Part shown: positions 1 through 12,223 of the stretch, piece after piece
Layout: each line of letters opens with the position of its first letter
How positions within the stretch are numbered: position 1 is the stretch's first letter
Origin: an uncultured archaeon
Lineage (GTDB): Archaea; Asgardarchaeota; Lokiarchaeia; Sigyniarchaeales; SOKP01
DNA length: 12,491 nt
Direction of reading: 5' to 3'
Assembly: GCA_964493715.1 (NCBI GenBank)
Contig: CAZBPC010000071.1
Span: 4,604-17,094 of the forward strand
Notes under the pieces: model-generated
Seen by the model: only the letters and a program-made list of their open reading frames with translations
Database searches by the model: none
What the model was told of the DNA's origin: nothing
Made by a program: the position numbers and the translations under genes

Positions 1-1065
1 TGAATTTAATTGTTTCCCCTCATTTTCAAAAAAGAACTCTACCATGGATAATTTCATCTTAAAATTCCTTATAATTTTTTTCACGTTTGGGTACTTTTTG
101 TAAGATTTTAGACTTTCCTTGGAGGTATCTTCATTTTCTAATGCATTAATCGCACAGTATGCGGCAGCTTCACCAGATACGATACTTGGATGTATTCCTT
201 CTCCACTAATGGGTGAAACAAATCCAGCTGCATCACCTATAATCATCAGATTGTCAGCATATAAAGATCTGTCAATAACACCAGAACCAGGCATGGGATA
301 AGCTCCACTCCAATGAGTTTTATAATTAGATCCAGAGAAAATTTTTTTAATAAAAGGGTCTTTAAAGAAATTAAAATGTACTTCACTTAAATTGTATTTT
401 GCATTGTCTTCATTACAAGTACCGCATCCAATATTGAATTTATTATCTTTCAATGGAAAAATCCAGCCATAGCCTTTATATTTTTGGAAAAAAAGGAAGA
501 TTTTTGACGCATCTAAAGATAATTCTCCTTCCATAATTGCGCATTTCGCTTGATATAGATCATTTATTTGCCATTTTTTCCTTATACCTGAATTATTTGC
601 TAATTTGGAACTCATGCCATCAGCAATAATTAGTATTTTGCCTAAAAAGTCTGTTGAATCAGATTTTGTTTTAGTCTTTATACCTATTTTATTACCATCC
701 TTATAGAGAAAATCGTAGGAAAGATGCTTATCAAATAATTCTGCTCCAGAATCGATCGCAACGTTTCTTATTACATTATTAAATTCTAACCTATCCACGT
801 TAATCGAAGATTCCCTAATATTTTGCCAAGAATATTCCAAATTGTCATAATCACTTGAATACATTGAAACGCCATTAATTTTATGATAATCAAGCTTTCT
901 TAATTGAGGATAATACTTAAAAATCCGTGAACTAACTCCTCCACCACAAGGTTTTCTCCAATTTGTATTTCTTTCAAGTAGGGCTACTTTAAACCCTGCT
1001 TTAGCTAAAACTTCCGCACTTTTACAACCTGCAGGACCCGCACCTGATATTACAACGTCAAACAT
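1..1065 (-). CDS. Geranylgeranyl reductase family FAD-dependent oxidoreductase (DGGGPL reductase-like); 3' end runs off the window
   Basis: Not in the ORF track (no stop in window). Hand translation from ATG at 1065..1063: MFDVVISGAGPAGCKSAEVLAKAGFKVALLERNTNWRKPCGGGVS... with Rossmann GxGxxG, KPCGGG, IIADG, GYGWIFP (YxWxFP GGR motif) and IGDAAGFVSPISGEGI. The frame stays open to position 1. AAGGT precedes the ATG. Confidence 0.9.
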   Translation of the reverse strand, partial: MFDVVISGAGPAGCKSAEVLAKAGFKVALLERNTNWRKPCGGGVSSRIFKYYPQLRKLDYHKINGVSMYSSDYDNLEYSWQNIRESSINVDRLEFNNVIRNVAIDSGAELFDKHLSYDFLYKDGNKIGIKTKTKSDSTDFLGKILIIADGMSSKLANNSGIRKKWQINDLYQAKCAIMEGELSLDASKIFLFFQKYKGYGWIFPLKDNKFNIGCGTCNEDNAKYNLSEVHFNFFKDPFIKKIFSGSNYKTHWSGAYPMPGSGVIDRSLYADNLMIIGDAAGFVSPISGEGIHPSIVSGEAAAYCAINALENEDTSKESLKSYKKYPNVKKIIRNFKMKLSMVEFFFENEGKQLNS

Positions 1066-1141: not shown

Positions 1142-2350
1142 ATGAATAATCAAAGTGAAAAAGATTTCTACGACTTTATTATAGCGGGAGCAGGTCCAGC
1201 GGGATTATCAGCTGGTATCGTCGCCGCTAGGAAAGGACATTCAGTTATGATATTAGAACGAGGGAATGTTGCTGGTCCTAAGCCTCGTGGGGAAGGGATG
1301 GGCTATTTTCCAGTGGTTGATGAAATTTTAGGTGAAAATTTCCTACCATCAATCGGGATTAAGTCAAATGGTGGACGAGTTTGGCATTCACCAAATGACG
1401 AGCATAATTTGACCACGTTTAAAGACTATCCTCACTACTTCTTTGAATGGCGTAAATTTATTGATAGATTTGTTGAAGTTTCCAATCAAGAGGGAGTTCG
1501 AATGAAATTCAACTGTGAAGTCATTGATTCTATAGAAGATGATGGAGTCTGTAAGGGTGTGAGATATCAAACTAATGGAAAAGTCAATGAGATTCGTGGA
1601 AAGATAATATTGGATTGTAGTGGGTATGAAGGAGTAATTGGTAAGCAATTTGGAGTGCCATATGAACTAATGCGATGTCCAATAGTCAAATGTCTTATTA
1701 GTAAGGCAAATTACACGCTTGAAAATACTCCAGATTTAAATTTTTACTTTATCGGAAATGGCGATTTGGAATATGCTCCTCAATTCCCCCCTGCTGTTGC
1801 TTACTTTTTCCCCTTAGATGGAGACCGTGCAGAAGTAGGTCTTATGTTGAGGATGGCTCAGGTACCAAATATGAAAACTGTTAAGATTCCAAATAATAAT
1901 GAAATAATTAAAGCATGGCATAAGGTAAAATCATCTTATCCTGGATTTAACGAATACTTTAAAGGCGCTAATATTGATTATGAAGAGGTTACTAGTCTAC
2001 CTAATGCGAAAATGGCTGAAAAGTTTGTTCCTCATCCTGGAGTTGTAATAATAGGAGATAGTGCTGGTTTTATTAATCCTTTTGGATCCTCTGGGCTATA
2101 CTACTCGATGAAAATGGCAAAGTATTGGGTACAAATGCTTTCAGAAAAACTTGAAACTGTAGATTTATGGAACAAGCAAAGTATCGATGACTACCAAACA
2201 CGATTTGAGGAATCCGAGTTATACCAAGAAGTAAAGGGCATGTATGATTTAATAGGGGCCTTTGAATACAAGATTTTTAATAGGTTACGGACTTCTGAAA
2301 AAATTAATAAGAAGTGGGACTATATAGAGAATCTTTTAAAGCAAGCTTGA
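1142..2350 (+). CDS. NAD(P)/FAD-dependent oxidoreductase, geranylgeranyl reductase-like family (divergent active-site motifs)
   Basis: 402 aa ORF with DFIIAGAGPAG (FAD binding), ILDCSG and IIGDSAGFINPFGSSG (GD motif). The canonical KPCG and YxWxFP motifs appear as KPRG and AYFFP. Confidence 0.85.
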   Translation: MNNQSEKDFYDFIIAGAGPAGLSAGIVAARKGHSVMILERGNVAGPKPRGEGMGYFPVVDEILGENFLPSIGIKSNGGRVWHSPNDEHNLTTFKDYPHYFFEWRKFIDRFVEVSNQEGVRMKFNCEVIDSIEDDGVCKGVRYQTNGKVNEIRGKIILDCSGYEGVIGKQFGVPYELMRCPIVKCLISKANYTLENTPDLNFYFIGNGDLEYAPQFPPAVAYFFPLDGDRAEVGLMLRMAQVPNMKTVKIPNNNEIIKAWHKVKSSYPGFNEYFKGANIDYEEVTSLPNAKMAEKFVPHPGVVIIGDSAGFINPFGSSGLYYSMKMAKYWVQMLSEKLETVDLWNKQSIDDYQTRFEESELYQEVKGMYDLIGAFEYKIFNRLRTSEKINKKWDYIENLLKQA

Positions 2351-2395: not shown

Positions 2396-3418
2396 TTAGC
2401 TCATTGATACTTTTATTTTGTTTATGTAACCTTTCCTTTTTCCGAAATTTACACCTAGTATTAAACCAAGAATTCCTGATATAACATCAACCAGTAGAGT
2501 AATTATAAGAGCCTCAGTCACTGTTAGATTGAACTTTTTTATGATAAATAGCCCAACAAACACTAAAACACCAGCAACTAATGGTATGGCAACTAATGAT
2601 ATAATTAAAAGTTTTAATGAGATACTTTTCTCCTTATTTGTTCGAAGCAAGAATAGATCTATTAAAACGTGCTTACTGCCAACACTCCACATCCATAAAA
2701 TTATTACAAGACTGGCTAAATAAATACCGATAGATAAATCGATAAAATAAATAGATCCATTAGCAATAACAGTTTCAGTATAGCTCTTAAGATTTATTAT
2801 AAAATTTAAACCCAACACAATTATTGTCCACGGAATTAAATATTGCCAAAAAAGATGTCTTGTATATGCACTGGGCGAATTAGAACTTGATTGTAAGTTC
2901 TTAAAAGCAGTCACAAATGAATCGAGGTCCTTTTTAAGATGGCGCTTTATGAGTACAGTATTTAAGATGAATGTGATAACAAAGGCAATTATAATTGCTA
3001 TTATATAATTAAGAAATTCTGGATTGATTAACCAAAAAACTAGCCATAATACAGATAAAGTCCCAATACTTAAAATGATTGCTTCAGGGGTTAATCTGCG
3101 CCAAGGACTTTTAAATTTTTCATTCTCGTTTACTGAATCTGACTCTTTTAATTTCCATTTTCCATTTATAAAGGCAATTTGAGAATCTTTTATTGCATTA
3201 TATGGAACTATTAATGAGATATAGGTAATATATAAAATAATGAACCCAAAATTTGTAATCAATAAGTTATGGGTATTCCCTTTTCCAATAAGAACGTAAT
3301 AAAGTAGACCAAATATAATAAGATTAATCAAGTTGGAGATAATATTTAATGCATTCACTTTTTTAATCCATTCTTGCATGCTTAATACTTCTTTAGCTTT
3401 TTTTCCTTTTTCATTCAT
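2396..3418 (-). CDS. Hypothetical integral membrane protein (~8 TM segments)
   Basis: 340 aa ORF with about eight hydrophobic stretches by eye, in two groups of four separated by a polar linker (KRHLKKDLDSFVTAFKNLQSSSNSPS). Starts 33 bp downstream of the GH29 stop on the same strand. No family recognised. Confidence 0.75.
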   Translation of the reverse strand: MNEKGKKAKEVLSMQEWIKKVNALNIISNLINLIIFGLLYYVLIGKGNTHNLLITNFGFIILYITYISLIVPYNAIKDSQIAFINGKWKLKESDSVNENEKFKSPWRRLTPEAIILSIGTLSVLWLVFWLINPEFLNYIIAIIIAFVITFILNTVLIKRHLKKDLDSFVTAFKNLQSSSNSPSAYTRHLFWQYLIPWTIIVLGLNFIINLKSYTETVIANGSIYFIDLSIGIYLASLVIILWMWSVGSKHVLIDLFLLRTNKEKSISLKLLIISLVAIPLVAGVLVFVGLFIIKKFNLTVTEALIITLLVDVISGILGLILGVNFGKRKGYINKIKVSMS

Positions 3419-3451: not shown

Positions 3452-4906
3452 TTAACTTGCGTTTCTTGGTTGGGGAGAAATCTTAAAACTATATGCGGGA
3501 GAAACTTCAATTTTTTCTGGAAGTATTATTTTTAGATTCATTCCTTCTTGATACCATTCTAGTTTACCATTATATCCTAATAAATGAATGGTGGTATTTT
3601 CGTTAACGATTATCGAATTGATAGTAATAATTGTATTTAGCTTATTTAATACTATTGCATAGAGAATATCATCTTTCTGTGTATAACGTAAATTTAAATC
3701 ATTCATTGTTTTCCCTTCTGCAATAATCCAAGGTCTTGTTCCAAATATGGCTTCTCCATTCACTTCAAGCCATTTTCCCAATCCAATTAATCTCTCCAAT
3801 TGAAGTCTGGGAATTGTCCCATCGACCATTGGTCCTACATTTAATAAAAGATTTCCATTTTTGCTTACAATATCTACAAACAGGTAAATTAATTCATCAA
3901 CCGATAAGTAATCGTTTTCAGTTTCAAATTTATTATATCCAAAAGAATTCCCAATTCCTCTACAAGTTTCCCACTTTTCTTCTAATATTTCTTTCGATTG
4001 AGTGTATTCGGGAGTTAAAAAATCATAATGTGGCGGTTTAAAGGCTATATTTTTTCCCTTTTTTAACATTCGTTTTCCGAACCAAGAAATTAAGGCTCCA
4101 GTTAATCTAGATTCAATCAATTTTCGAAAGGATGGAGAAGTTTGTATCCAACGATCATTTACAACTCCATCAGAGATTTTGTTATAAAAATACGAGAACA
4201 ATTCATTAATATTTGTATTTGGAGGATATCCCATATCACTCCATAAAATGGAAGGCTCATAATCATCAATTAATTCGCGCCAATGATTATTAACGTATTC
4301 TGTGTATTCAGGATCGGTAGGACCATTAGTTAAAAATGTTTTTATATTTGTAACAGGAATCTCATTAAAGGACCAATCCCAACAACTACTATAATAAAAA
4401 CCCATCTTTAAATCCCTACTTTTTATCGCCTTTGTGAGATCTCCTACAAGATTTCTCTTTGTCATATAATTTTTCTTTTTAGGATTAGGATATTTACTAT
4501 GCCATAAAAGAAATCCGTCACCGTGTTTTGTTGTAAAAACTACATATTTTGCACCTATTTCTTTAAATATATCTGCCCATTTCTCTGGATCCCATTTTTC
4601 AATTTCCTTATTAAATATTGGAACAAAATCATCGTATTTAAAATCATCACCATAAACTTCATTATGATATTTATAGGTAGGACTTTCTTTAATCCTTAAA
4701 GAATTTAAATACCATTCTGCATAAGGATTATTTATAAAATGCTGTACTGGACCTTTCTTCATAGAATTTACTAAATCTGTTCCTGTAACAGCAAATGCTG
4801 GAACTGAAAATAAACCTAAATGAATAAAGATTCCTAATTTAGCATCATGAAACCAATTAGGAACTTCATGTGTTTTTACTGATTTTAATTCAGGTGTGAA
4901 AGTCAA
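3452..4906 (-). CDS. Alpha-L-fucosidase, GH29 (Thermotoga AfcA-like), variant copy; TTG start
   Basis: 484 aa with WFHDAKLGIFIH, NPYAEWY, TKHGDGF, LWSDMG (nucleophile Asp), NDRW, DFLTPEY (acid/base Glu), WETCRGIGNSFGY, GNLLLNVGP and NGEAIFGTRPW. The N-terminus aligns with the ATG-started paralog. No signal peptide. Confidence 0.92.
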   Translation of the reverse strand: MTFTPELKSVKTHEVPNWFHDAKLGIFIHLGLFSVPAFAVTGTDLVNSMKKGPVQHFINNPYAEWYLNSLRIKESPTYKYHNEVYGDDFKYDDFVPIFNKEIEKWDPEKWADIFKEIGAKYVVFTTKHGDGFLLWHSKYPNPKKKNYMTKRNLVGDLTKAIKSRDLKMGFYYSSCWDWSFNEIPVTNIKTFLTNGPTDPEYTEYVNNHWRELIDDYEPSILWSDMGYPPNTNINELFSYFYNKISDGVVNDRWIQTSPSFRKLIESRLTGALISWFGKRMLKKGKNIAFKPPHYDFLTPEYTQSKEILEEKWETCRGIGNSFGYNKFETENDYLSVDELIYLFVDIVSKNGNLLLNVGPMVDGTIPRLQLERLIGLGKWLEVNGEAIFGTRPWIIAEGKTMNDLNLRYTQKDDILYAIVLNKLNTIITINSIIVNENTTIHLLGYNGKLEWYQEGMNLKIILPEKIEVSPAYSFKISPQPRNAS

Positions 4907-4913
4907 TTTTAAA

Positions 4914-4918
4914 TCCTC
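4914..4918 (-). promoter_or_regulatory. Shine-Dalgarno-like GAGGA upstream of the TTG start of the variant GH29
   Basis: Minus strand reads GAGGA-tttaaaa-TTG (7 nt spacer), which supports the TTG start. Confidence 0.55.
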
Positions 4919-5017
4919 ATTATTATCGCTTAATAGAGCAAGCTAAATTTTAGTAAAGCTTTTTGAAAATGAATATTAATTTAGTAATTAATTTTATTAA
5001 TTTTAGTGGAAAATTAT

Positions 5018-6052
5018 TTAATTTTGCTGCACAGACTTGAATAATGCATCAACATTAGCGGGGTTCACATCTGGGAGAATAGCTTCGTGACTAGGAGATA
5101 TTATCAATCCTGTTGGAAAAATGCGTTTTAATTCAAATACCTTTTCTCGGATTTGGTCAGGATTGCCAAAAACTAATAAATTCTGAGCATCAAGACCTCC
5201 ACAAAAAGAAATTTTATCTCCATAATTACTTTTTAAAGATTTAACATCCATTTTAGCAGCTAAAGCTTGTATAGGGTGAATAGCATCGATTCCCAAATTA
5301 ATTAAATCAGGGATAACATCAAATATTGAACCACAAGAATGATAAATGACTTTTAAACCATAACTTTTAGCTTGATCAATAATCTTTTTTGATCCTGGGA
5401 GGGCAAATTTTCTAATGTTTTCTGGAGAAACCATCAATCTCTTTTGTCCTCCGAAATCATTTCCAATAAGGACAGCATCTATTTTTCCCTTAGTTGCTTC
5501 GTAAAAAATTTTATTTGCCTTTAGATAAAATTCAACTATCTTTTCTGAAACAGCTTTTATTATTTCGGGATTCTTTAATATATTGATAAGAGCTCTCTCC
5601 ATCCCGAAAGCAGAATACACGTCTTGAAAATGTGCTGACCACATAATCCCCAACACCGGATATTCTTCTGGAACATCTTCAATACGCTGCTTGCATTCTT
5701 CTGAATCCATATAATTTGATGGGTCAGGCCACTCAAAATCGTCCACTTTAGAAGGATCAGAATAATCTTCAAAAAATCCAGGTGCTGTTAAAGTTCTTTT
5801 TGAATAATTAATTGTACCTTTTTTAGCAAAATCAAACGCACATGCGATGTGATTATTAGGAGGATAATTATAAGGAACCTCTACATGCCAAATGTCATCA
5901 TTAATTTTTAATTTTAAATCTACTAGATTCTTAACTTGAAAATACTTAAATAATCCTTCATAAGCTTCTTGAACTGGTATACCTAACCAACATGCGGGTC
6001 TATCTACAGATTTTCTCTCTAATGTAGCAAAAAATCTCTCTTTATGATTCAT
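5018..6052 (-). CDS. Uroporphyrinogen decarboxylase (URO-D)/MtaA-CmuA methyltransferase superfamily protein (not HemE)
   Basis: 344 aa with N-terminal MNHKERF...VDRP, GNDFGGQKRLMVSP, YHSCG (5330..5341), IHPIQ, FCGGLD and ISPSHE. Lacks the HemE MRQAGRY motif. Confidence 0.85.
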   Translation of the reverse strand: MNHKERFFATLERKSVDRPACWLGIPVQEAYEGLFKYFQVKNLVDLKLKINDDIWHVEVPYNYPPNNHIACAFDFAKKGTINYSKRTLTAPGFFEDYSDPSKVDDFEWPDPSNYMDSEECKQRIEDVPEEYPVLGIMWSAHFQDVYSAFGMERALINILKNPEIIKAVSEKIVEFYLKANKIFYEATKGKIDAVLIGNDFGGQKRLMVSPENIRKFALPGSKKIIDQAKSYGLKVIYHSCGSIFDVIPDLINLGIDAIHPIQALAAKMDVKSLKSNYGDKISFCGGLDAQNLLVFGNPDQIREKVFELKRIFPTGLIISPSHEAILPDVNPANVDALFKSVQQN

Positions 6053-8843: not shown

Positions 8844-10646
8844 CTATAACTTACCATATAAAGGACCAAAATTAGAACATGCTCTAAAATCTGCCCCTTC
8901 TAAGTTTTCAGTTCCAAAGCTGGTCCAAACACTTGGCCTGAATATCTTTTGGTTACGAATATTATGCATAAAAACTGGTATTCTTAACATTGATGCGAGA
9001 GTGATCAAGTCCGCCCCAATATGACCATAAGAGAGAACTCCATGATTGGCTCCCCAATTATTCATTACATCATATACAGTTGTAAATGCACCAACACCAG
9101 TTAATCTTGGAACAAACCAAGTAGTAGGCCAAGTATTATTAGTTCGATCATCTAATACTTTATGGATATTAAATGGGACATCAATCGCCCAACCCTCAGC
9201 TAATTGAAGCACTAATCCGATATTTTGAACGATATTAACTCTTGAAAGGGTCATTGGCATTTCCCCTCTTGTTAAAAAGTTTGAAGAAAATCCCCCTCCT
9301 CTAAAATATTCATAAATAACAGGGTCCCATTTTGAAGCGAGTAAACATCTCTTGACTTCTTCTTCTGTAATTAGCCAGAAGGGCTTTAATGCTGGTTTTC
9401 CCTCTATTTCTTGTTGTCCAGTACCATCCATCGTTGCAGAACCAGAATTAATAAGATGAATTATGCCTTTCTCTGCTTTCCCAGTTAACTTCATCCCAGT
9501 GACACGCTCTACTGCTTCTGGACTCCAAAAAGTTCTAACGTCGGCAAAAATCTGTGCGGTATTAGTTAACAAATGACTAAACAACATGGTGATTCCATTC
9601 AAAGCATCATTTTCGGTTGCCATCAGATAGGGTTGTCTGATTCCATTCCAATCAAATGAAGAGTTTAAAATAGTTTCCATGAAATCCCCATTCGGCATGA
9701 AATCAGTCCAATGGCGTTGTCCTTGAAATCCAGCAACTATAGCGTTATGTCCCAATGATTCTTCCCCATATCCCTTATTTTTTAATTCTGGATTACCTAC
9801 CATGAGATCTCTACAAATCATCGCCATTTTTATCATAATATCCCACTCTTCATCTTTTTGTACTCTGCTTTTTTGAAATTCGGAAGGGTTTGTATCTATT
9901 CCTTCTTTACAATATTCTTTCACCCATTTGAAAGCTAAATTGAATTCATTTTTATCATATATTCCTTCATGAATTCTCCGAGAAATTTCTGACATATCCA
10001 CATATTCATTTCTCATATCAAAATATTTCTGGAAATACTTTTCATCTATGATGGATCCAGCAATGCCCATTGAAACACTTCCTATTGATAAATATGATTT
10101 TCCTCTCATCCAAGCCACTGAAAGACCCGCCTTGGCAAATCGCAATAGTTTCTCTTTTACATCTTCAGGTATACTTGTATCATTTTCGTCCTGAACATCT
10201 TTTCCATAAATTCCAAATGCAGGTAACCCTTTTTGCGAATGAGCGGCTAAAACTGCTGCAAGATATACTGCACCTGGTCTTTCTGTACCATTAAATCCCC
10301 ATATAGCTTTAGGAATAAAAGGATCCATATCCATAGTTTCTGTTCCATAACACCAACAAGGAGTGACGGTTATTGAAACACCTACATCTTCCTTTCGGAA
10401 TTTTTGTGCACACTCTTCTGCTTGGGCAACACCACCAATCGTAGAATCTGATATCACGCATTTTACATTCATTCCATTAGGATATACTAAATGTGCACTT
10501 AGAAACTTAGCCACTGAATTTGCCATACCCATTGTTTGTTCTTCAAGCGATTCGCGAACTCCTTTTTCTCTTCCATCAATAGTAGGTCTGATACCAATTT
10601 TTGGGATAGCACCTTTTAACCTTTTCTTTCCAATGTGTTTCTCCAT
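8844..10646 (-). CDS. fucI: L-fucose isomerase
   Basis: 600 aa with [52 protein letters not shown] (catalytic/Mn Glu), FADVRT (Asp) and WGANHG (His). These are all hallmark FucI motifs. Confidence 0.97.
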
Positions 10647-10735: not shown

Positions 10736-12223
10736 TCAAATTATTTTGTCCCAAACTTTACGAGTAATATTGTTAGGATCGTTTTCTACTTTTGGTTCCT
10801 GAGCCAATATCATTACTGCTCTTTTTTTTAAGTCATAGATTGGCCATTCAGGGATACCAGAATGAGAAGGAATTCCAGTTCTAGCAAAAGTTACCCACGT
10901 GTCCATCATCATCTTAGATAAATCCTTGGTCTTTGGTGTTTTAATAATCACCCCTTCAGTCATGTCTTCTCCTAAAGTACCAAATACGAAAGCCATTTCA
11001 AAAGTATGCAATGCGGCACCAAACTTAGGAGAATCATAATAGAAGATATAGTGATATATATTATTTTGGTGTTCAACGTGAGCTTCAAGTTGACGAAGAA
11101 TTGGAATTCTAAACAAGGAATCTGATAATAAGAAATCCCAATATTTAAAATCGTTCTCGGGATAAATTAGTTTTGTTTCTGCTTTATAGATTTTTATTAA
11201 TTCCTCTAATTTTTCTTCAGAAATTCCACTTTTTTTGAATTGGGATTTCATTAACTTCATTATCAACGATCGTTTAACTTGATTGGAATTTTTTAGAAGA
11301 TCTGAGATCATTCCTAATTCTTCACTGTTATATCCGATTATTATTGGAACCTTAGCAGAATTTCCCTTCTTGATAATATCAATGGGCTGCTCGGGCATAA
11401 CTTCTCCATCTACGAAAGGTCTGAATGGATTATCTTTTAGATCGAAAACAGTGCCTGCAATCTTCTTTTGAACTTTAATCAGCTTTGTTAGCTCTATTTT
11501 TTTTAAGGTGTTAATATCATTTAATTTCAAACCTAATTTTTTCATAAACTTTTTCGCACCATTCCTAGCACTCTCTGCATCAAAATCTCGGGGGTTTGTT
11601 GCTCCACTCTCGATTATTGCTTTTTGATATAGTTCTTGAGCTAATGGAATAGTGAGTAAAATCCCTACAGACATTCCACCTGCGGACTCTCCAAAAATTG
11701 TAATGTTCTTCGGATCTCCCCCAAATTTTGCAATATTGTTTTGTACCCATTCTAAAGCTGCAACTTGATCTAAGATTCCTATATTTGGAGGTATTCCAGG
11801 TAAATTCAGAAACCCTAATGCTCCTAAGCGATAATTAAAACTCACTATAACAACATTGCCATATTCTGCTAACTTAGAACCATTGAATCTCTCTCTTGAA
11901 CCTGCACCAATTACGAAACCACCTCCATGAATCCAAAACATGACGGGTCGCTGCCTATTATCTGCTTGAGGAGTCCAAATATTAAGATAAAGACAATCTT
12001 CATTTTCTTCTTGTTTTATTGGGCTTTCATCGATATAATTTTGGGGTGCAATAGAACTGAAATTAGTAGCATCTTTTATATCATCCCAAGGATCCATCGG
12101 TTGAGGCTTTTGAAATCTCAAATCTCCCACGGGAGGTTTTGCATAAGGGATTCCATAGAACCTTTGATAACCAGATTCTTGAACTCCTCTAATTTTTCCT
12201 TTTAGTGTTTCTATTACAACCAT
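10736..12223 (-). CDS. Type-B carboxylesterase/lipase family protein (PnbA-like alpha/beta hydrolase)
   Basis: 495 aa with GIPYAKPPVGDLRF, EDCLYLNIW, WIHGGGF (oxyanion hole), NYRLG, FGGDP, GESAG (catalytic Ser, 11678..11692), GYNSEE (Glu) and ALHTFE (His). Confidence 0.93.
   Translation of the reverse strand: MVVIETLKGKIRGVQESGYQRFYGIPYAKPPVGDLRFQKPQPMDPWDDIKDATNFSSIAPQNYIDESPIKQEENEDCLYLNIWTPQADNRQRPVMFWIHGGGFVIGAGSRERFNGSKLAEYGNVVIVSFNYRLGALGFLNLPGIPPNIGILDQVAALEWVQNNIAKFGGDPKNITIFGESAGGMSVGILLTIPLAQELYQKAIIESGATNPRDFDAESARNGAKKFMKKLGLKLNDINTLKKIELTKLIKVQKKIAGTVFDLKDNPFRPFVDGEVMPEQPIDIIKKGNSAKVPIIIGYNSEELGMISDLLKNSNQVKRSLIMKLMKSQFKKSGISEEKLEELIKIYKAETKLIYPENDFKYWDFLLSDSLFRIPILRQLEAHVEHQNNIYHYIFYYDSPKFGAALHTFEMAFVFGTLGEDMTEGVIIKTPKTKDLSKMMMDTWVTFARTGIPSHSGIPEWPIYDLKKRAVMILAQEPKVENDPNNITRKVWDKII

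Follow-up and report, generated by a model that had tools for sequence, protein, structure and literature searches.

The window studied here is a stretch of 12,491 nucleotides (nt) from the genome of an uncultured archaeon of the Asgardarchaeota (Lokiarchaeia, Sigyniarchaeales; assembly GCA_964493715.1, contig CAZBPC010000071.1, positions 4,604 to 17,094), and its element of interest is a gene for a variant of glycoside hydrolase family 29 (GH29) together with the neighbouring gene UROD1, which encodes a protein of the UroD superfamily. Genes for a carboxylesterase, a fucose isomerase, a canonical GH29 protein, UROD2 (on the opposite strand), UROD1, the variant GH29 protein, a membrane protein and two flavoproteins of the geranylgeranyl-reductase family are arranged in this order. 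The variant gene (P0001, 3452..4906, minus strand) starts with TTG and encodes 484 amino acids (aa) comprising a GH29 catalytic domain and a C-terminal beta-sandwich. A gap of 111 nt separates it from UROD1 (P0331, 5018..6052, minus strand, 344 aa), which matches PF01208 at 9.7e-24. Beyond lie UROD2 (P0332, 6219..7406, plus strand, 395 aa), a distant second protein of the same superfamily with an HSCG motif (PF01208 at 4.3e-28; about 30% identity to UROD1), and the canonical paralog (P0002, 7438..8811, minus strand, 457 aa). P0001 and P0002 are the only GH29 genes in this genome, and their products are 56% identical.

The two paralogs differ at several motifs of the active site: P0001 has KHGDG, HLG, YYSSCWDW and LWSD as compared to KHHDG, HWG, YYSGALDW and LWND in P0002, where the first two are encoded by ACA AAA CAT CAT GAT GGC TTT and CAT TGG GGA. 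Gly129 of P0001 (GGT at 4520..4522, minus strand, reading acc on the plus strand) directly follows Lys127 and His128 (codon 4523-4525) and replaces the O2-binding His129 of the Thermotoga maritima fucosidase TmFuc, whose numbering coincides with that of P0001 from about residue 106 to 253. Leu30 (TTA at 4817..4819, minus strand, taa on the plus strand), preceded by His29, replaces the Trp that follows the O4-binding His (TmFuc Trp35). The YYSSCWDW motif occupies 4396-4373 on the minus strand and includes Ser174-Cys175-Trp176 of the beta4-alpha4 loop (4379..4387); Trp176 (codon 4381-4379) stands in place of a Leu and marks the variant class. Finally, Ser223 (codon 4240-4238) replaces an Asn directly before the nucleophile Asp224, both being encoded at 4235..4240, minus strand. 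A preliminary description of this DNA had reported the exchanges at positions 129 and 30, and both were confirmed in the translated open reading frame. The exchange of LWND to LWSD (Asn223 to Ser) had escaped it and lies outside the positions it gave, and belongs to the same coupled set. Its argument that each change needs at least two substitutions holds for the codons present (CAT to GGT and TGG to TTA, two bases each), with the caveat that Trp to Leu is possible by a single one (TGG to TTG). An error of sequencing or assembly can be dismissed, as four further assemblies encode the protein at 87-97% identity with all four of these motifs. Likewise, the catalytic residues are kept as it had stated, with LWSD (Asp224), NDRW (Arg252) and TPEY (Glu300) all present.

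P0001 matches the Pfam family Alpha_L_fucos (PF01120) with 298 bits (E 1.5e-88; cut-off 25.2) over positions 14-345 of the 345-position profile, and the fucosidase C-terminal domain PF16757 with an E value of 1.7e-08. It is 40% identical to TmFuc over the whole length and belongs to the T. maritima type without an N-terminal extension. An AlphaFold2 (AF2) model built with 63 relatives reached a mean predicted local distance difference test (pLDDT) score of 93.1, and its best Foldseek matches were 1hl9, 2wsp and 1odu, with a target-normalised template modelling (TM) score of 0.93, followed by GH29 alpha-L-glucosidases and an exo-alpha-L-galactosidase. Asp224 (ILWSDMG) and Glu300 (LTPEY) align to LWNDMG and TAEY of TmFuc and are invariant in the 63 relatives. 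Glu300 (4007..4009, minus strand) corresponds to the acid/base Glu266 of TmFuc by pairwise alignment and is invariant in alignment A1. The PF01120 profile, the nucleophile and acid/base and the two-domain fold place P0001 in GH29. Homology to the GH139 enzyme BT0984 was not found: Pfam shows GH29 domains only, and there is no NCBIfam match; any resemblance may be one of function alone. The region between NDRW and TPEY (residues 254-291; 4034..4147, minus strand) is predicted to form a helix-loop-helix and exceeds that of the short form by about 25-28 aa (28 gaps in P0002 by pairwise alignment); the AF2 helices span 258-265 and 267-282 at pLDDT 72-85. This insert is common to other long-form Asgard GH29s and is not specific to the variant, long and short forms being intermixed on the GH29 tree. 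A helix-loop-helix instead of alpha5 is described for ClAgl29B in PMC9774334.

According to Table 10 of PMC11796335, twelve residues lie within 5 Å of fucose, and the role of TmFuc His129 is given there as 'O2 H-bond', along with Trp67. The preliminary description was therefore right that H129 contacts the fucose 2-OH. The equivalent of His129 is conserved in all seven structures compared in that source, and according to PMC9774334 the corresponding His contacts O2 even in the GH29 alpha-L-glucosidase ClAgl29B. Of the twelve -1 subsite residues (in TmFuc Phe32, His34, Glu66, Trp67, His128, His129, Tyr171, Trp222, Asp224, Arg254, Glu266 and Phe290), P0001 contains eleven. The O4 histidines His29/His128, the O3 pair Glu64/Trp65, the platform Tyr171, the C6 pocket Phe27/Trp222/Phe322 as well as Asp224, Arg252 and Glu300 are retained, and His129 is Gly. 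The complete -1 subsite of an alpha-L-fucosidase (EC 3.2.1.51, GH29-A type) is thus not present in P0001.

To place these exchanges in a wider context, the residues were surveyed in the best 120 database relatives and then in 181 Asgard-type GH29s including relatives of P0123. Trp176 occurs in 22 of the 181 proteins, all of which carry Gly, Cys or Ala at 129 and Ser, Gly or Ala at 223, and in none of the remaining 159. P0001 represents this triad as Gly/Trp/Ser, and the full triad is found in 22/181. Altogether 31 of the 181 Asgard-type clusters (17%) are devoid of His129; in nine proteins position 129 is Met, Ser, Leu or Ile, with Leu or Ile at 176 and Asn223 retained. Asn223 and Trp30 are invariant in all 103 His-His rows of the first set. 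The exchange of HWG to HLG is private to the lineage of the window, and other variant clades keep the Trp. In a broader sample of the family, comprising 150 diverse representatives, the residue at position 129 is other than His in about 20. In the AF2 secondary structure, the neighbouring strands beta3, beta4 and beta5 are each immediately followed by one of the positions 129, 176 and 223, and we infer that the side chain of Trp176 fills the space freed by His129 and Asn223. The suggestion that His to Gly opens a cavity is therefore not supported as worded, since Gly, Cys or Ala at 129 always comes with Trp176 and a small residue at 223 (22/22 vs 0/159). Judged from the residues, the O2 side of the site is rebuilt and not merely hollowed.

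The class is conserved and not a one-off, which had been left for checking in the preliminary description; the exact motif KHGDG that it had singled out is rare, being present in one of 398 genomes of the phylum, in close relatives of the window and in P0123. A DNA pattern for TKH[G/C]DGF found Gly in the window's genome only and Cys in four others among the 398, none of which encodes an ortholog of P0001 above 62% identity. Gly and Cys alternate at position 129 within one clade (Gly in P0123, Cys in its sisters P0272-P0274), which indicates that loss of the imidazole matters and characterizes the class, and not the gained Gly or thiol. KHGDG was consequently rejected as a clade marker. P0123, P0272, P0273 and P0274 are GH29s of the Trp176 class from Promethearchaeota, membrane-anchored fucosidase-like enzymes of 598-658 aa whose N-terminal part, about 170 aa long, forms a multi-pass membrane domain. 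A further class has KHMDG (His129 to Met; Leu or Ile at 176 and Asn223 kept) and comprises P0065, P0112, P0313, P0314, P0301 and P0310 (locus L069). In some of its members the O4-binding His is also replaced by Thr (TW, not HW). In genome G171 this class, too, adjoins an ortholog of UROD1. When the six trait columns were left out of the alignment, the best tree required four changes of the Trp176 state, its backbone being weak. A sign test on four independent pairs gave p 0.125 and cannot reach significance at this size. The stem branch of the pair P0001/P0003 is long (0.46 substitutions per site).

A metagenome scan revealed four loci (L038-L041) with the same protein at 97, 97, 89 and 87% identity and full synteny. 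For analysis of selection the window was compared to L039, L040 and L041; L038 was left out, as it carries the same protein as L039. In all three the P0001 gene has equal length and no stops, and HLG, KHGDG, YYSSCWDW and LWSD are unchanged. The Nei-Gojobori ratio of nonsynonymous to synonymous substitution rates (dN/dS) was 0.166-0.177 for P0001 at dS 0.28-0.38, and 0.157 for the canonical GH29, 0.14-0.18 for UROD1, 0.11-0.16 for UROD2 and 0.19-0.20 for the membrane protein. The reading frame of P0001 is intact in five assemblies. Accordingly, the gene is selectively maintained and not decaying. Decay, which had been named beforehand as an outcome that would speak against a new specificity, is not the case: dN/dS is about 0.17 like that of the canonical copy, and the motifs are kept in four populations. 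The DNA of 3452-6052 is present in 24 DNA sequencing runs labelled as salt-marsh metagenomes; RNA runs are not among them, which carries no weight for or against decay.

Examination of the gene neighbours, likewise proposed beforehand, revealed that a conserved partner gene of the UroD/MtaA superfamily adjoins the variant class. UROD1 adjoins the GH29 gene found by the TKH[G/C]DGF pattern in five of five phylum genomes. In the four other pattern-positive genomes (L042-L045) a canonical GH29 gene, a KHC-type GH29 gene and an ortholog of UROD1 (about 69% identity) follow each other. A fucose isomerase gene lies beside this array in three of the four, upstream in L045 and downstream in L043 and L044, and none was seen in L042. 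L045 contains in addition genes for an FGGY kinase, a class II aldolase, an aldehyde:ferredoxin oxidoreductase, GH78 and GH51, and L043 (genome G171) an S1-type sulfatase gene (12542-13945) and an ortholog of UROD2 beside the fucose isomerase gene. A search starting from UROD1 yielded orthologs with at least 61% identity in 13 of the 398 phylum genomes, at 15 places, and in none of 40 other genomes of the window's own genus. At eleven of these Asgard loci a GH29 gene lies directly beside UROD1, and all eleven products are without His129. Residue 129 is readable in ten of them (Gly in one, Cys in eight, Met in one); L077 ends before this position at a contig end, with Trp176 and Gly223 visible.

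The linkage is replicated in bacteria. Scanning species-representative genomes for TKH[G/C]DGFxLW resulted in 22 loci, the Asgard ones representing the class described above and the bacterial ones belonging to Victivallales, Verrucomicrobia, Bacteroidota, Acidobacteriota, Pirellulales and one Mycobacterium. The bacterial KH[C/G] proteins belong to other GH29 subfamilies and do not have the Trp176 triad, and their nearest solved relatives (8z63, 6gn6, 9eu4) are of the His-His type. At four Victivallales loci an ortholog of UROD1 (58-63% identity to the archaeal protein) directly follows the KHC GH29 gene, with a gap of 2 nt in L047. When three Victivallales genomes were searched with UROD1, nine orthologs with at least 54% identity and two paralogs with 36-38% were found. 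Six of the nine orthologs have a GH29 gene directly upstream, and none of the six products has the second His (KHC in four, KHI and KHV in one each). L089 also contains a His-His GH29 gene, which is located about 0.8 kb downstream of UROD1 and is not its direct neighbour. In L083 and L087 UROD1 is immediately followed by a second URO-D gene, and this mirrors the UROD1/UROD2 arrangement of the window. Furthermore, UROD1 lies beside an S1-type sulfatase and a GFO/IDH/MocA oxidoreductase in L090 and L092 (Victivallales, genome G398) and beside a pyruvate formate-lyase-like, glycyl-radical-type enzyme in L085. Overall, 17 of 17 GH29 proteins encoded next to UROD1 are without His129, as compared to the 17% given above for Asgard-type clusters. 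These 17 cover two domains, at least three GH29 subfamilies and at least seven sequence solutions or lineages; no p-value is given for 17/17, as kin are not independent. The replacements differ and comprise Gly or Cys with Trp176, Cys without Trp, Ile, Val and Met. Archaeal (Asgard) and bacterial UROD1 proteins share 58-64% identity (L047, L052, L063, L083-L092). This identity, together with the absence from 40 congeneric genomes, suggests a transfer of the GH29-UROD module between the domains.

The UROD1 protein scored 52-57 bits against the MtaA/CmuA-type NCBIfam models (cut-offs 235-244), 37-38 bits against the MtaA and MtbA equivalogs (400-600) and 16.7 bits against HemE (TIGR01464, cut-off 303). 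It thus stays below every curated cut-off and can be assigned to the superfamily only, not to HemE. Its relatives at 58-74% identity stem from Asgard archaea and anaerobic bacteria (Clostridium sp., Mahella australiensis, Limnochordia, Planctomycetota, Deferrimicrobium). The AF2 model (pLDDT 93.3) is about equally near to UroDs and to the MtaA-type methyltransferase of M. mazei (4AY7/4AY8), with TM scores of about 0.65-0.72 at 15-18% identity, and MetE comes next. Across 49 sequences, His238-Ser-Cys240-Gly, Cys284 and His322-Glu323 vary hardly or not at all, a pattern of HxC...C/H/E which we take to resemble the zinc sites of MtaA and MetE; UROD1 is probably zinc-dependent. Neither a corrinoid protein nor an activase or MtaB-type gene was detected among the examined neighbours by Pfam. 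In known O-demethylase systems a corrinoid protein is normally encoded alongside. At other places in the window's genome there are genes for at least eight small B12-binding corrinoid proteins (about 208-228 aa; contigs C6, C40, C101, C102 and others; L094-L099), two of them in tandem on C101, which implies that this archaeon possesses several putative corrinoid methyltransferase systems. According to 10.1101/2023.07.31.551370, the chemistries known from the UroD superfamily include a decarboxylase, MetE, an epoxide-coenzyme M (CoM) transferase and corrinoid O-, S- and halogen-demethylases. The labels 'alpha-L-fucosidase' and 'uroporphyrinogen decarboxylase' are probably both wrong for the two genes.

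The remaining genes of the window extend the cluster on both sides. The L-fucose isomerase gene (8844..10646, minus strand; PF07881, PF07882, PF02952) is syntenic in L043-L045. At the end of the fucose cluster a protein of the carboxylesterase family (COesterase, PF00135 at 1.1e-127) is encoded at 10736..12223, minus strand, and may act as an O-deacetylase of sugars. The gene that comes next after the variant GH29 gene in the downstream direction (2396..3418, minus strand) encodes a multi-pass membrane protein (P0333, 340 aa), which is conserved in L038-L041 only. It matched no Pfam or NCBIfam family and could be a transporter or an anchor. Homology of P0333 to the N-terminal membrane domain of the P0123-clade GH29s was considered and rejected (best BLASTP E values 0.69-0.80). 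Two divergent flavin adenine dinucleotide proteins of the geranylgeranyl-reductase family (1-1065, minus strand, and 1142-2350, plus strand) are syntenic in L038 and L039; this pair flanks the sugar cluster, and a link to the fucose genes is not evident. As a separate observation, the GH29 matches L006 (G152), L013 (G163) and L028 (G134) in related genomes contain one in-frame TAA each and may be pseudogenes or assembly errors.

We consider it rather probable, though far from certain, that P0001 is an active exo-glycosidase for a fucose-type sugar modified at C2, which works together with an enzyme of the UroD superfamily feeding the fucose isomerase. P0001 would be a retaining GH29 glycosidase that still recognizes the 6-deoxy-L-galacto configuration and in which the O2 side alone has been rebuilt. 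It would release a fucose-type sugar with a substituent or an altered group at C2; UROD1 and UROD2 would turn this sugar into plain L-fucose or a catabolisable equivalent, and the adjacent fucose isomerase pathway would consume the product. The canonical P0002 would take unmodified fucosides. As to the nature of the substrate, we infer, tentatively, 2-O-methyl-L-fucose as the single most likely compound. It fits best because the superfamily of the partner includes enzymes of methyl transfer, because all named carriers are anaerobes, for which demethylation by an oxygenase does not come into question, and because a salt-marsh habitat could supply plant rhamnogalacturonan II (RG-II), the run label itself being silent on function. 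Moreover, the Asn and His of GH95 would block the O2-methyl group that GH139 accepts (PMC12282258). A partner from a superfamily that contains O-demethylases makes the idea of a 2-O-methyl group more attractive. Going one step further, the His129-less GH29 together with UROD1 and UROD2 might constitute an oxygen-independent pathway for O-methylated fucose, in which UROD1 would be a new sugar-ether demethylase using a corrinoid encoded elsewhere or none; this extension is more doubtful. If it were true, the 2-O-methyl-L-fucose would originate from plant RG-II or from algal or diatom polymers reaching anoxic salt-marsh sediment, the GH29 would be the first enzyme outside GH139 to release this sugar, and the module would be shared by Asgard archaea and anaerobic bacteria via gene transfer.

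Several observations weigh against a role in C2-modified fucose, and some of them fit an ordinary alpha-L-fucosidase with a repacked wall, in which Trp176 (through N-epsilon1) and Trp65 bind O2, perhaps with another linkage or aglycone preference, the link to UROD1 being unrelated to C2. Trp65 (TmFuc Trp67), the O2-binding Trp of the AEW motif, is retained in P0001; the N-epsilon of Trp176 could substitute for His as a donor, so that plain fucose may still be a substrate, and the proposed contact of Trp176 with positions 129 and 223 is derived solely from covariation and strand topology. Of the 12 first-shell residues 11 are kept, the non-His residues in about 20 of 150 diverse GH29s suggest that position 129 tolerates change, and fucose loci often contain two GH29 genes in tandem that divide the linkage specificities between them. 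In an approximately unbiased (AU) test on a 63-row subset, comprising 15 of the 22 Trp176 rows as well as 48 of the 159 others after thinning at 66% identity, a single Trp176 clade was not rejected (log-likelihood difference 12.5, p-AU 0.366); convergence is consequently not claimed, and one old origin or several convergent ones are both possible. The linkage is moreover one-way. Fourteen bacterial KH[C/G] GH29 loci are without UROD1 in the stretch fetched, and no GH29 gene lies in the 1.5-kb flanks of UROD1 at L078, L079, L080 and L082 (among them contig ends and a split gene) or at the remaining three of the nine Victivallales orthologs. Concerning the chemistry of UROD1, a PDB sequence search returned nothing at E <= 0.01, the NCBIfam scores are far below the cut-offs, and tblastn (E <= 1e-3) found no B12-binding corrinoid protein near UROD1 in 39 stretches totalling 241.6 kb. 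An ordinary fucosidase nevertheless leaves unexplained the loss of His in 17 of 17 UROD1-adjacent proteins from two domains and at least three subfamilies, and His129 is kept in every solved GH29 compared, the L-galactosidase and L-glucosidase included. We therefore regard this explanation as unlikely, although it has to be taken seriously.

A modified C2 could also mean an ester, P0001 being an exo-hydrolase for the 2-O-sulfated or 2-O-acetylated fucose of fucoidan-type sulfated fucans in which the small residues accommodate the ester and Trp176 and Ser223 bind it. In L043 (Asgard) and in L090 and L092 (Victivallales) UROD1 has a sulfatase gene as its neighbour, which fits sulfated fucans as well as methylated ones and counts against the main reading; the carboxylesterase of the window points in the same direction, and Victivallales, Verrucomicrobia and Pirellulales are typical degraders of sulfated glycans. 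However, no basic residue has been gained near the site, where the changes lead to Gly/Cys, Ser/Ala/Gly and Trp, and neither the window nor L042, L044 or L045 contains a sulfatase gene. Sulfatases and esterases need no UroD-type enzyme, so the tightest linkage, that to UROD1, would stay unexplained, and a sulfated or acetylated substrate appears improbable to us. Least of all do we expect a non-catalytic or decaying paralog, that is a relic of duplication or a sugar-binding protein without hydrolysis. The long stem branch of the P0001/P0003 pair and the loss of a residue conserved in all solved GH29s are compatible with such a protein, whereas the canonical copy has the same dN/dS, none of the five assemblies shows a broken frame, the catalytic residues (nucleophile, acid/base and Arg252) are kept along with those that bind the sugar, and the class is conserved across genera in an operon-like array.

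GH29 is among the best-studied families of glycosidases, and its sugar pocket is commonly recognized by the His-His pair. A conserved and selected GH29 class without the O2-binding His, tied to an uncharacterised UroD-type gene in Asgard archaea and Victivallales, represents a concrete two-protein system; in open-access text, neither a His129-less GH29 class nor a pair of GH29 and UroD-like genes was found described. Should the substrate prove to be a fucose that is methylated or carries another modification at C2, this would be a new specificity for GH29. It would show how anaerobes handle methyl-ether sugars without oxygenases and refine the carbohydrate menu inferred for Asgard archaea of sediments.

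Among known systems, TmFuc (GH29-A; PDB 1HL8/1HL9/1ODU) is alike in the two-domain fold, the nucleophile Asp224, the acid/base Glu266 (Glu300 in P0001), Arg254, the O4 histidines, the O3 Glu/Trp pair, the Tyr171 platform and the C6 pocket, at the 40% identity given above. P0001 differs from it by His129 to Gly, Leu176 to Trp, Asn223 to Ser and Trp35 to Leu, by the 25-28 extra residues between NDRW and TPEY and by the conserved UroD-like partner gene. The alpha-L-glucosidases ClAgl29A/B (7XSF-7XSH) and the exo-alpha-L-galactosidase BpGH29 (7LJJ) are fold neighbours. That a single His change in the -1 subsite can signal a new sugar specificity of a GH29 enzyme has a precedent in PMC9774334, where His34 to Asp gave an L-glucosidase. 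In these enzymes recognition of C4/C6 is altered and the O2 His is kept (His199 in ClAgl29B), whereas P0001 shows the reverse. UROD1 shares the PF01208 match and the TIM-barrel fold with the UroD superfamily (the methylcobamide:CoM methyltransferases MtaA/MtbA, the corrinoid-dependent methyltransferases of O-demethylases, MetE and HemE) and, unlike the MtaA/MtbA group, is encoded next to a glycosidase and has no corrinoid gene nearby. The candidate function of P0001 is known from GH139: BT0984 of Bacteroides thetaiotaomicron releases 2-O-methyl-L-fucose from chain B of RG-II. As the preliminary description had noted, such a specificity is atypical for GH29; according to PMC12282258, GH139 is the sole family acting on 2-O-methyl-L-fucose and GH29s are known on L-fucose only. 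BT0984 belongs to an unrelated, inverting family (PMC12282258) and has no homology to P0001. Its room for the O2-methyl group results from the absence of an Asn and a His which act as blockers in the related GH95 (PMC12282258), and this parallels the loss of His129 and Asn223 in P0001.

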